DNA of 64,000 bases from Eledone cirrhosa (Eukaryota): the NCBI GenBank assembly GCA_964016885.1, contig OZ024742.1, forward strand, positions 178,002,001 to 178,066,000, read 5' to 3'. Position numbers and translations under genes: made by a program. This document shows positions 19,173 to 61,072 of this stretch, piece after piece. The first letter of the stretch is position 1; every line of letters starts with the position of its first letter. Below the pieces are notes generated by a model. The model was not told the origin of the DNA and did not search any database. It saw only the letters and a program-made list of their open reading frames with translations.

Positions 19173-19260
19173 TCCTCTTGATAAGTCGGCAGACCTCGCA
19201 AGGACTCTATATCTTTGATATATTGTTTTTGTTTATGCCACGAAACTACGTAGTCGAGGA
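19173..19260 (+). ncRNA. Type I hammerhead ribozyme, U3-A8 core variant, long stem II
   Basis: TCCTC - TTGATAA - GT(C)GGCA...TGCCAC - GAAAC - TACGTA - GTC - GAGGA. Stem I is TCCTC/GAGGA and stem III is the palindrome ACTACGTAGT; predicted cleavage after 19255. Confidence 0.8.
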
Positions 19261-19763
19261 ATTCAGGAACAGTTTAGGTATGATACATTTTATTACTAAT
19301 TATATCTAAATGTTTCTTCTCTCTTCATAATGTATTTTTAACTCTGATACTGGTTCAGTCTGGTTCAAACTGAATTGGTCTGTCCCAGTCATTCATTGAG
19401 CAACATCGGTGAAGTTGGCACCCTTAACTCACAGTTGGGTGCGGATGCATTCATGTATATATGTGTGTGTCCGCATGTATCTGTGTGTTTCTAAATGTAT
19501 TAATAACTCCCTCTGGTCGAGCAATCTTTGAAGTGTGGGGACAACTGGAAAGCTTCCATTACTCATACTTCTCGCCTTCTTCACTACCTCTTCTACGGCC
19601 TCGATATGGATACCCCCTCCGCCTCCGTGGTATTTTTTTCGTGGTTATAAGAGGCTTAGCTCTGTTTCTCGACCGTTATATCGCGTGACTATCTCCACCT
19701 CCGCCTTTTGGGATTCTTTCTCACGTCGTGTAGACGCGTTCTTGAGACTAGTAAAATGAGGTA

Positions 19764-19851
19764 TCCTCTTGATAAGTCGGCAGACCTCGCAAGGACTCTA
19801 TATCTTTGATATATTGTTTTTGTTTATGCCACGAAACTACGTAGTCGAGGA
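19764..19851 (+). ncRNA. Type I hammerhead ribozyme, U3-A8 variant, second unit
   Basis: Identical to 19173-19260. Confidence 0.8.
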
Positions 19852-21761
19852 ATTCAGGAACAGTTTAGGTATGATACATTTTATTACTAATTATATCTAA
19901 ATGTTTCTTCTCTCTTCATAATGTATTTTTAACTCTGATACTGGTTCAGTCTGGTTCAAACTGAATTGGTCTGTCCCAGTCATTCATTGAGCAACATCGG
20001 TGAAGTTGGCACCCTTAACTCACAGTTGGGTGCGGATGCATTCATGTATATATGTGTGTGTCCGCATGTATCTGTGTGTTTCTAAATGTATATATATATA
20101 TATATATATATATATATATATATATTTATATATATATGTATATATATATATATACATATATATATATACATATATGTATATATATATATATATATATATA
20201 TATATATATATATATATATATATATATATATATATATTTATATATATATTTATATATATATGTATATATATATATACATATATATATATACATATATATG
20301 TATATATATGTATATATATATATATATATATATATATATATATGTATATATACATATATACACACACATATTATAATTGAAATAGAAATAGATGCTTTGT
20401 CCGTAATATGGAAAACGCTCCTGCTTCTATTTCAATTCTAAACTTCCTGTGTGTGTGTGTGTGTGTGTGTGTGTGTGTGTGTGTGTGTGTGTGTGTGTGT
20501 GTGTGTGTGTGTGTGTGTGTGTGTGTGTGTGTGTTAAAATGTGGGAATCCCAAACGCAGAAGTTAATTGTAACATACCTATATAGGAAAATGTGGCCAGA
20601 CATTAGTGCCTGTTAAAAGTACTCTACTTAAGTTACAGAAATCTATAAAATAAGCTTATATATATATATATATATATATATATATATACATGTGCGTAAT
20701 GGTTTGTATATGTGTATGTGCGTGTGTTGAGTTAGTATTAAGTATACATATAAAAGAGATTTCATTGCTGCTGCTTCAAGTAATACAACGTGTATCTTAT
20801 GCTACAAGAATAATCTCCACTCTACTAACCAGGCAGCTGCAAGGAGAAGATACATATTTTTATATCCCTTTATTACAAATTTACATATATAGATAGAAAA
20901 AATATTCTTTGCTTAGATTAGAATATTATGCCAGAATCACTTGCTTTATACGTCTGCATTCAAAGAAAGAATATATATATAAAATACAATAACAAGTTTT
21001 TGAGTGAATTAGAATATAAAAAAGAAACACCGAAGCAAGTGAGTTTTTCGCTGCATTTATTTAGCCAGACTATTGTTTGTTGAATAAAATGACAGTGTCA
21101 GAAGACTAAAGAGCGAACAGTTGATAGTGACAATTGCTGAAGAGAAGAATTATCTACGTTATTCCACTTCAGAAACACTGATTCTAACCTTTGATCTCTG
21201 CTGACAATGAAACTAAAATGGACGTGAAGATAGTCAGAGACCAAAGTTGGTTCTGTAAAGAAATCTAACAGTACTGTTATTGTAAGATCCATTTATCTGT
21301 TAGGTCAATATGTCTTAAATGTTAAAAAAAAGTTTTTTTCAGAATGAAATGTTTACCAGATTCTCGTATTCTTACGCTTACACATAACTTTAGATGCTTC
21401 TATGCAATTTATATGTATTTTAATATCGTCTAAATTCTGTATGTTTTATCTGTCGGTAATAAAAATAAGCTGTAACCCACAGTACGGTTGGAACGCGAAG
21501 AAATACTCTATTTCATCGATATATATATATATATATGTGTGTATGTGTGTGTGCGTGTGCGTGCGTGTGTGTGGGTGTGTGTGTGTGTGTACGTGTGTGT
21601 ATCCCGGGTTCAATTAGGGGTAACCACAGTAAGTAAGGTACTCAATACATAGCAGAGTATAAATATATAATATAGAAATGGCTTCTACAGGACTAGAATG
21701 TTTCATTCGAATGCGTATTCGTACAATTGTTTTTCCTTTTCTGTATAATCTCATTTACACA

Positions 21762-57606: not shown

Positions 57607-58811
57607 TAGTGGCGGACTGGGTCTAAAAATATTGGTTGCCAGGAGATGAAGGGTTCACACCTACATATAGAATGTTATCATTTAATTTTTATAATGAATA
57701 AATAACATTTTCAAAAAATACATAAGTGGAAACAAAACAGAGCAATCAAATTTTTGTGGGAAAAATATCTTACCTTCTCCAATAAAAGATATTATGTATT
57801 TTGCGAAATCCAGAGACTTTTAATAATGACCTTTGATCTTTCACACTAACTCAATATATATATATATATATGGGAGTGCGTGTACATGTGTATATATAGA
57901 GAGATTTATATATATGTATACATGACGTTTTCAACTTGTACAAAAATTCCAGAGATCTAATTGATATTGTATATATATATATATATATATATATATATAT
58001 ATATATATATATATTTAAAAGAATAGAGGTGTATCACACGAGTTGTGATATATTAGTAAAAGGAAAAAAAATGCTGACAACTTTTTCCCAATGAAAAATA
58101 GTTTAATTAGGAATAAGTAAAAATGAGTAATAAGTATTGGTTAGTATTCATTTTTAGCTTTAAGTTTTTACCGGTTGCGCATTTCTAATGCTTTTCAAAA
58201 ATAATTTTGAGATAGAGCGCCCGTGATGTTTGCTCTAATCCAGATTAGAGCAAACATCACGGGCGCTCTATCTCAAAATTATTTTTGAAAAGCATTAGAA
58301 ATGCACAATCGGTAAAAACTTAAAACTAAAACTGAATACTAACCAATACTTATTACTAATTTTTACTTATTCCTAATTAAACTATTTTTCATTGGGAAAA
58401 AGTTGGCAGCATTTTCTTTTCCTTTTACTAATATATATATATATATATATATATATATATATATGCTTGAATGTCTGTGTTATATATGTATGTTTGCATG
58501 CATGTATGAATACACTACGCTTTAGATTTAGTAGAATGTAGAACCTCTGATTCCAGCTATTTGCGCTATCATATATTTCGGTTTCTATTAATTAACTGGA
58601 GAATTAGTTGATCAAATGCTTTGCTTAATTATTTTATTTATTTTTAAAAAATGTTTATTCATTCTCTTAGACTTCAAGTATTTTTTCAAAGCTCACCATT
58701 GGCCCCTAAAACACTACAGTGGGCCCTGCAATGCTACCGCGGGCCCCTGCAAAGCTATCGTGGGGCCCTGGGGCCCACTTACCATTGGGCAACCTGGCCG
58801 GTCCGCCATTA
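57607..58811. mobile_element. Putative non-autonomous hAT element with nested insertions
   Basis: TIRs TAGTGGCGGACTGG / CCGGTCCGCCATTA (12 of 14 match) and clustered subterminal GGGCCC motifs; no clear TSD. Confidence 0.5.
58048..58435. repeat. Long palindrome, arms about 193 bp, 2-nt spacer (58241-58242)
   Basis: ...GTTTGCTCTAATC ca GATTAGAGCAAAC...; the inner about 60 bp are perfect. Confidence 0.92.
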
Positions 58812-60099
58812 TATATATATATTATTTGTTTGTTAGAATAATCAAATTAAATTAATTCAATAGTTAAACACAAATGGAAATAATAAGACTCTCCAAAGAG
58901 CCAGAAGATTGACATGTCGACACTAAGTATCACTAATAGCTCTAGGAAAGCCACATCATCTTATCTTTGATTTTGAAAGTAGGGTTATAATTATTAATTT
59001 TCATAATATCTTTGTAGCTGTCTCGGCGGCCTAGTTGGAGGAATCTTAGACGGTGGTGATCCTGGTCTGATGTTCGATCCTGGTCGAGAGTAGGGTTCCC
59101 ATTAAAACTTTTCAATTTTTTCTATGGGATGTAAAATAAAAACTGAAAAAGATTACATGAACCCAAGATCAGTATCTCCACCGTCTCTTGTACCTATCGC
59201 TAGTCCTATGAGACAGCTACCAAAATCTATTGAAAATTCATACTTAGAAACCTACTTTTAAAATGTTCAATAGAAAATCATGTGGTGTTGTTCGTGTATT
59301 TCTTAATGTTATTGCCCCTACGTAAGGTCGACTTCTAAATCATTTAGGTGTTCCATAAACTACATCCTCGTTTTGTTTCTCATCTATCTAGACTATATGT
59401 TAACCTATAATCCATGTTTCATTTCTGTTGCACCTCATCTCTCTCCCTCTCTTCCCCTCTCTCTCTCTCTCTATCTCTCTATCTCTCACTATTTCAATCT
59501 ACTATGATTTGAGTTTACTTTATTCATACATATATGTTTTTGCATTATCAGATTCACACTTACAATGAGTGGGATTATATATACATATATATTTTTAAAA
59601 AAAGGAAAAGAATGACTTCACTTGTAGTGTTAAGCAATTTTTGATTTAATTTCATAATATTATAATATTATGAGTTGGAAGATCCAGTAAGTTCAGTACA
59701 GCATAGACGAAGCTCTAGTATACGGCCAATCTAGCGTGTATGCTTATTCAGTCTGTAGCTTTAGCACTCGGATGAGGTAAGACCCCAGAGTAATAACATT
59801 ATGTTCAGACAGCTTAGCAAATCAGATATAGCAGTCGGCAGTCCGACCGCATTACCAGAGCAACGAAAATACAATATATATATGTTAACCTATAATCCAT
59901 GTTTCATTTCTGTTGCATATATATATATATATATATATATATATATATATATATATATATATATATATATATATATATATACAGTGAGTGATGGAGAGAG
60001 AGAGACTGATTGAGATAGGGGGAGAGATTGGAAATAACACGGAAATATATATTGAAGGGGCTGAGGGGCTGTTTTCTTTTTTTCCTTTCTTTGATTCAT

Positions 60100-61072
60100 T
60101 AAACTGACATTATTGAAAAAATGAGAAGGACAATTCTTTTTAAAAAGGTTATATAATGGTTATCAAGTTTATAAAGTATAACCGGTTTCGATATATTAGT
60201 AAAATTCATCTTATCAAATGGTGAGTATTACAATTTAAAAAAAAAATGATAACAATTAAAAACTAAAAATTAAAGATTTAAAATTAAGTGTTGAGGTAAG
60301 TACTTTTCATCTTCCTTGTTGAGAAGGTGACTGGAAAAAGAACTCTTGTGTATATAGAGAGAGGTGTAGTCATAAAGTAACATCAGCAGTGGTGGTAGGT
60401 GTGTTTTAGTATAGAACCAAATTGGTTTTAGGAACAAAGGACATATTCTGTAAGTGTGTGTATCTCAATTTTGTTATGGACTGGTCAAGAGTTCAGATGG
60501 GGGTGGTGAGAGGGGGGCGGGAATTGTAAGCTAGAGACATATTCTACAACAGTAGGGTTGTAAAAGAAATTCTATTTTTGGAATAAGGTTTTAGTGAGTT
60601 TGTGTAATGTGACAGTGTATATATATATAAAAATACACACATATGTGTGGGGGTGGGGTGCTGTGTTGTGTGTGTGTGTGTGTGCTTCAGCCTGTCTGTC
60701 ACAGGTCCCTTTGTGGTGGGGAATTTTAAAAAACAGATCAAAGCATGAGTGATGGCTTTCAATCAGGATTTTTTGGAAAATATGTGTATGAGCAATTTTT
60801 TCTCTCTTATTCCGCCGTGTGAGGGGCGAGGGGGGGAACTCTAATAGGGGTGTTAACATATTTAATTTTGGTTTTAATTTGTTAGTAAATAGGTTTTCTT
60901 TATTTATTCTTTGTTGTTGAGTGAAAGAATTGGGGCACTTGTAAAGGGGGAAGATTTTAAAGTTGGGTAGGGTCATTCCTGCACAATAAACACGGTGGCT
61001 ACTTAAGGGTATTTTTCTTGAGTTTACGTCCCGGATTTGTTAGCGATGGATGGTCATTCTTTTGCGTAATGA
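60100..61072 (-). mobile_element. Penelope 3' fragment (GIY-YIG C-terminus and pLTR with degenerate U3-A8 hammerhead at 60177-60220)
   Basis: A single frame reads [25 protein letters not shown]...CAG...NFKIFPLYK........RINKENLF..KLKPKLN. Downstream is TTGATAA-GAT...ATC-GAAAC-CG-GTT. Confidence 0.7.

Follow-up and report, generated by a model that had tools for sequence, protein, structure and literature searches.

Hammerhead ribozyme motifs with a U3-A8 core pair recur in Penelope-like elements and tandem repeats of the Eledone cirrhosa genome

We report here on hammerhead ribozyme motifs in a 64,000-nucleotide stretch of the genome of Eledone cirrhosa (GenBank assembly GCA_964016885.1, contig OZ024742.1, positions 178,002,001 to 178,066,000 of the forward strand; hereafter the window), in which the pair between positions 3 and 8 of the core is U3-A8 in place of the canonical C3-G8. 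Whole families have this pair fixed by compensatory covariation, not by decay, and we favour the reading that master elements probably carry selected, cleaving U3-A8 hammerheads, U-A having replaced C3-G8 at the 3' ends of Penelope-like elements (PLEs) and in tandem retrozyme-like repeats. An initial annotation of the window had named eight such sites, and all the core heptamers that it listed are indeed present at their positions (site positions below are those within the window, and the family letters are labels coined for this analysis). It had assigned the motifs to unrelated repeat families; the eight sites instead represent five families of type I hammerheads rather than eight independent cases, and four of these families are PLE 3' ends from two clades.

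Judged by their sequence, the eight sites are genuine hammerhead-ribozyme motifs, and their cutting is predicted. The type I core (N3-U4-G5-A6-N7-N8-A9, G12-A13-A14, A15.1-U16.1, H17, with a Watson-Crick 3-8 pair) is complete in the four copies of family A and at sites 35284 and 60217, as well as elsewhere in the genome in families C, J, K and E1, and it is incomplete in the window copies at 33426, 58.2 kb and 61984. A descriptor leaving N3 and N8 free made five hits in the window, all of them U-A (the four A copies and 60217), as opposed to an average of 0.17 in 60 shuffled versions of the window (block-wise dinucleotide shuffling), just one of which contained a U-A hit. The descriptor did not pick up 35284, 33426 or the 58.2-kb pair. 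No hammerhead was among the Rfam matches listed (150 of 313), a list swamped by microsatellite hits; the genome, 3.0 Gb in size, is rich in microsatellites.

The sites 19178, 19769, 51575 and 52170 are copies of one family, A, arranged in two tandem pairs with a 591-nt period, the two loci being 97% identical. The hammerhead at 19173..19260 (plus strand; core at 19178, C17 at 19255) and its identical tandem copy at 19764..19851 (plus; core at 19769) belong to a partial tandem of a non-coding unit that extends over 18864..20091 (plus) and ends in (TA)n; the second partial tandem occupies 51424..52323 (plus; cores at 51575 and 52170). The fold is a complete type I one, with a 5-bp stem I, a long stem II, a palindromic stem III and C17. 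Family A is rare in the genome (at least five matches), and no partner reverse transcriptase (RT)-endonuclease (EN) frame was found near it or near family E, described below. Families A, E and M consist of tandem non-coding units with one hammerhead each (591 nt in A, 318 nt in E, with 9.5 copies in locus L211, and 484 nt in M), and in this respect are like non-LTR (long terminal repeat) retrozymes.

Families B and C meet in a composite insertion at 33-35 kb. The complete U3-A8 hammerhead of family B (35279..35374, plus; core at 35284, C17 at 35369) has a 5-bp stem I and long stems II and III, and lies in an inverted pseudo-LTR (pLTR; 34660..35467, plus) with (TA)n at its end, next to a 5'-truncated GIY-YIG endonuclease open reading frame of a Hydra-type PLE (34105..34668, minus). 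This frame shares 91% identity with the 710-aa RT-endonuclease frame of locus L171, and a Pfam search of the window did not recognise it. Fused to this element is the 3' fragment of a family C element, likewise of the Hydra type (33322..33451, plus; core at 33426). A stem III ending in GUH, ascribed initially to most of the motifs as a palindrome, is complete in family A and at 35284, where it is a hairpin around a palindromic loop and not a pure palindrome; site 33426 has no GUH and hence no cleavage site, because the family C 3' end breaks off within stem III, at 33451, and both arms of the 58.2-kb pair are decayed. Neighbours of family C elements that resembled a second, canonical hammerhead within them proved to be separate insertions beyond (TA)n. 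Contig depth in runs X1 and X4 increases 10-30-fold at the GAAAC of family B and beyond (35336-35460), which suggests many extra short 3'-end copies without the 5' half of the core.

The other two families are of the Neptune type. The partly decayed U3-A8 hammerhead of family D (60175..60222, minus; core at 60217-60211), with a 2-bp stem I, follows a Neptune-type endonuclease fragment (about 60850-61072, minus) at a distance of about 630 nt, and an inverted pair of family-J-type 3' ends at 58048..58436 contains decayed U3-A8 cores at 58198 (minus) and 58285 (plus), A13C being present in both. Stem I comprises merely 2-4 bp in families C, D, K and J.

Four of the five window families thus lie in the 3' pLTRs of PLEs (B and C in Hydra-type, D and J in Neptune-type elements), the fifth being the tandem family A. 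In families B, C, D, K, J and S the hammerhead is in sense orientation downstream of an RT and GIY-YIG frame, at characteristic distances: in the fetched loci about 260-400 nt (C) and 1,150 nt (B) after a Hydra-type EN, and about 850 nt (K), 631 nt (D) and 1,030-1,130 nt (J) after a Neptune-type EN. A third, Nematis-like frame type (L187) is followed in one locus by C3-G8 motifs 1.6-1.8 kb behind. These clade names were assigned by eye against the supplement of Craig et al. 2021 (PMC8557442), and by the same comparison the RT and endonuclease motifs of B, C and S are clearly like its Hydra rows. Thousands of copies of the motifs have been inserted into (TA)n repeats, frequently as pairs in inverted or tandem arrangement, and this targeting, the 5' truncation and the inverted or tandem pLTRs agree with described PLE insertions; copies of family C mostly end about 90 or 250 nt past the core, at (TA)n. 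An unrooted protein tree of 14 Hydra-type rows, without named references, unites B (U-A) with S (C-G) in a group supported by 100/99 that excludes C (U-A). At least two changes of the 3-8 pair are therefore required within the Hydra type, unless pLTRs were swapped. A candidate assignment of family M as the pLTR of a Hydra frame was not established, as a microsatellite stands between the two.

Exact-pattern counts over the whole genome, with the reversed pattern as a control, show how widespread the variant is (breakdowns per 100 are hand counts of the first 100 copies listed, mostly from contig C1). A minimal class with G10.1-C11.1 gave 2,424 U-A (control 79), 133 C-G (15), 71 C·A (31) and 62 U·G (28) cores, so that in this one descriptor class U-A far exceeds the mismatched pairs, the very comparison against which the initial annotation had wished its proposal to be judged. 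The ACCGGU class, whose pattern admitted just C/U at position 3 and A/G at position 8, has 18,041 members (147), 99 in 100 with U-A and 85 of J type. The B superfamily counts 6,507 copies (0), with 77 U-A, 21 C·A, 2 U·G and no C-G per 100; E1 counts 749 (0), with 99 U-A; and E2 counts 684 (0), with 88 C-G, 3 U-A and 9 mismatches. U3-A8 is not the dominant core, as the ratio of 2,424 to 133 had seemed to indicate; this appearance is an artefact of a pattern that required G10.1-C11.1. Families M (32,158; control 320; 97 C-G, no U-A and 3 single mismatches per 100) and N (23,342; control 0; 87 C-G, no U-A and 13 single mismatches) are very large canonical C3-G8 families (L330-L349) with U10.1·U11.1, as in published Hydra hammerheads, M forming tandem units of 420-500 nt. 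Extrapolated to the genome, the totals are about 26,000 U-A and 52,000 canonical C-G cores, U-A making up about one third of the cores counted, which bears out the large U3-A8 population proposed initially. The family list is incomplete on both sides, because the patterns were written after examples had been seen. Further small U3-A8 families, O (316-nt tandems), P, Q and R (L367, L385, L183/L378 and L386), were met incidentally. A family of about 25 U3·G8 motifs that lack stem I but have a long stem II, situated in some loci beside Tx1-like LINE (long interspersed nuclear element) frames (L078-L085), may not be hammerheads.

Whether the U-A pair reflects covariation or decay is best seen in family E, which contains a U3-A8 subfamily (E1) and its canonical sister (E2). 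The latter is represented in the window by a C3-G8 hammerhead at 53919..53960 (plus; core at 53923) and by further decayed copies at 54224 (plus) and 53720 (minus). These copies, like the window copies with C3·A8 and A4 cores described below, had gone unnoticed in the initial annotation. In a tree built from the window copy and 30 loci each of E1 and E2, after masking of positions 3 and 8, the two subfamilies are split by a single 100/99 branch that bears both changes, all 30 U3 rows lying on one side, although the bootstrap is not fully settled; the remaining three changes at position 8 are single tips. Pair analysis of 57 rows (four omitted, one for a loop insertion and three as near-duplicates) left 51 distinct ones, with U-A in 26, C-G in 22, U·G in 1 and other combinations in 2. 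Two stem II pairs are also altered on both sides, within search patterns that limited the letters of stem II. In a three-helix test 96.5% of cells are paired, compared with 91.6% after shuffling and 12-39% after sliding. The flanks of E1 and E2 are 72-75% identical.

These data leave little room for the notion that the U3-A8 motifs are canonical hammerheads that, once inserted, decayed through independent C>T and G>A changes, which the A+T content of the window (63%) and the single C·A and U·G copies in the C3-G8 families might have suggested. Families M, N and S include no U-A pair at all in the 300 copies listed, against 19 single mismatches (3, 13 and 3 per family), and the U-A families (the ACCGGU class, E1 and B) include no C-G pair in the first 100 copies listed of each. 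The family counts thus refute decay, which we regard as very improbable, and together with the double changes of family E they uphold the initial idea of natural covariation. Chance matches are even harder to credit. The core is short and degenerate, and some of the U·G and C·A hits are indeed due to chance, given controls of 28 and 31; however, controls amount to only 0-3% of the U-A hits, the window contains five hits where shuffles average 0.17, and the motifs keep a fixed place behind PLE endonuclease frames. The low controls, the maintenance of a Watson-Crick 3-8 pair family by family, the split within family E and the fixed position all speak for selected hammerheads in the master elements.

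The 3-8 pair of the hammerhead serves only to position nucleotide 8, and a U-A pair should therefore work. A partial rescue obtained with C3G/G8C (PMC11167929) is consistent with such a role. The replacement of C3-G8 by U-A thus likely preserves self-cleavage, as far as can be predicted from the sequences. On transcription, two copies would pair via the palindromic stem III or, where stem III is long, it would fold on its own; the RNA would then be cut after position 17, possibly with the assistance of a protein, releasing a unit-length or circularisable template, as envisaged from work on PLE hammerheads. The swap at positions 3 and 8 most likely arose several times, via a short-lived mismatch in a master element, and most genomic copies, including 33426 and the 58.2-kb pair, would be dead truncation products.

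Several results weigh against selected cleavage. Monomers fold no better than shuffled sequences (z from -1.2 to +0.6 in seven of seven cases), and the predicted fold of family B favours a rival hairpin that buries GAAA, so that the B core may be under relaxed constraint. The covariation in family E amounts to one event per pair, its cells counting copies and not events. A search with family B listed no RNA run that contains it. In vitro, cleavage by minimal hammerheads of PLEs is poor, and PLE priming still took place with catalytic mutants (PMC11167929). Two amplified lineages depart from the expected core altogether. About 1,400 copies of family B, roughly a fifth of the superfamily, have a C3·A8 mismatch, a second window copy at 61979..62074 (plus; core at 61984) belonging to this subfamily and showing further G12A and C17U decay. 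The C3 form is linked to a diagnostic site (33 of 38 C3 copies compared with 1 of 48 U3 copies); in a tree limited to copies with sufficient upstream sequence (42 of 86), one 85/98 group takes in 29 of the 30 C3 rows; copies adjoin RT-EN frames (L173, L175 and L176); and at 35284 the form accounts for 46% of the contig depth in run X1, possibly the source sample. A-to-I editing as a rescue of this mismatch was considered: the X1 and X4 contigs contain no A>G at position 8, and as contigs drop rare variants this speaks neither way. The other lineage is the Hydra-type family S, located about 0.9-1.1 kb behind its frame in four of four loci and represented in the window by an inverted pair of 3' ends at 62665..62836 (hammerhead-like core at 62767, plus) and elsewhere by locus L383:5310. 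It is C3-G8 and also has G15.2-C16.2 and U10.1·U11.1, while all of its first 100 listed copies carry A at position 4 (23,803 hits, control 0, compared with only 199 U4 hits). Stem II covariation was not seen in this family (a compensatory signal in 2 of 100 rows), and its function is thus unsupported.

It is conceivable, though in our view rather unlikely, that all these motifs are descendants of hammerheads in which cutting is weakly selected or dispensable, U3-A8 being just one core state reached by AT-ward drift in masters and amplified as a passenger. The C3·A8 subfamily beside RT-EN frames, family S, the priming by catalytic mutants and the spread of Naiad PLEs without hammerheads are all in keeping with it. 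Pure drift, however, should scatter masters among mismatched states, whereas about 18 of the approximately 20 families seen hold a Watson-Crick 3-8 pair (U-A or C-G) and merely two are mismatched; family E has double changes at three pairs; and no route of spread without processing is known for tandem retrozymes such as A, E and M. We therefore retain selected, cleaving U3-A8 hammerheads in master elements as the preferred interpretation. The C3·A8 and A4 lineages, amplified with cores that are expected from their sequence to be impaired, are more surprising than U3-A8 itself, and they offer a way to test whether cutting is obligatory for PLE hammerheads. Somewhat more tentatively, the genome may hold a series of natural mutants of the hammerhead core, each in lineages that reached thousands of copies: U3-A8 gained at least three times (in E1, in the Hydra-type B and C, parted by a C3-G8 family, and in the Neptune-type D/K/J), one lineage with C3·A8 and another, of about 24,000 copies, with A4. 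The C3·A8 and A4 cores would then either be new active natural variants, or Penelope elements would spread in vivo with a dead ribozyme, an outcome that would settle whether PLE hammerheads are needed.

The variant itself is not new, and what we describe is a large new example of it, not a new kind, so that the initial view of U3-A8 as overlooked or unusual has to be abandoned. Schistosoma PLEs contain about 1,300 minimal hammerheads with U3-A8 and about 2,000 of the canonical form (Cervera & De la Pena 2014, PMC4209133), and a natural U3-A8 variant was reported to be active in vitro (Perreault et al. 2011, PMC3088659). The Cercyon PLEs of S. mansoni share with the present elements type I motifs in pLTRs, a palindromic stem III and U3-A8 covariation in about a third to two fifths of motifs, and a published alignment places U-A motifs of S. 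mansoni beside a similar C-G motif of S. japonicum (PMC4209133). The present genome differs in having about twenty times as many copies, which occur in PLEs of the Hydra and Neptune types as well as in tandem retrozymes; in addition, stems II and III are longer in A and B, and lineages with C3·A8 and A4 have been amplified. With the Hydra clade of Craig et al. (PMC8557442) our elements share RT motifs, (TA)n targeting, a sense 3' hammerhead and inverted 5'-truncated copies; all 26 Hydra rows of its table are C3-G8, as required by the descriptor used there, whereas B and C are U3-A8 and S is A4. Metazoan non-LTR retrozymes (Cervera & De la Pena 2020, PMC7229834; Li et al. 2026, 10.64898/2026.07.22.740005) are likewise built of non-coding units in tandem, every unit carrying a single type I hammerhead; here there are U3-A8 subfamilies (A and E1), and no autonomous partner was found for A or E. 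Both U3-A8 and U10.1·U11.1 are tolerated natural variants in Perreault et al. (PMC3088659), while U4A is absent from the available text and C3·A8 as an amplified lineage from its passages.

In literature searches, whose coverage lacked most subscription papers, we came across neither a description of U3-A8 from Hydra or Neptune PLEs nor one of a PLE family with U4A, and no informative data on G8A/C3U or U4A hammerheads; the combination of hammerhead, octopus and Penelope led solely to Craig et al. 2021 (PMC8557442). That paper and PMC11167929 treat it as an open question whether PLE hammerheads help or merely ride along, and the C3·A8 and A4 lineages bear on this question. Searches requiring CUGANGA would lose about a third of the hammerheads counted here, a share that rises to about half with the A4 family counted in. 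Family E provides a matched natural pair, C3-G8 versus U3-A8, for measuring the cost of the swap.

Another locus deserves mention in connection with family B. At L318-L322 (G000:C2:356029895-356031748) a pLTR fragment of this family with a shortened stem II now forms a 299-nt tandem array of 7.5 near-identical units, possibly a retrozyme newly born from a PLE end.

The window also contains repeats of other kinds. Inverted-repeat insertions between (TA)n runs, in which no hammerhead was detected, occupy 50436-51181, 51176-51379, 52343-53211, 54451-54836 and 55869-56133. A dispersed 190-nt family resembling a short interspersed nuclear element (SINE) has more than 10 copies (3683-3880, 16585-16764, 17533-17748, 36308-36500, 43416-44662 and others), and broken non-LTR retrotransposon frames are found at 30-954, 9241-13310 and 38610-41800, two of them with an apurinic-endonuclease domain (PF03372).

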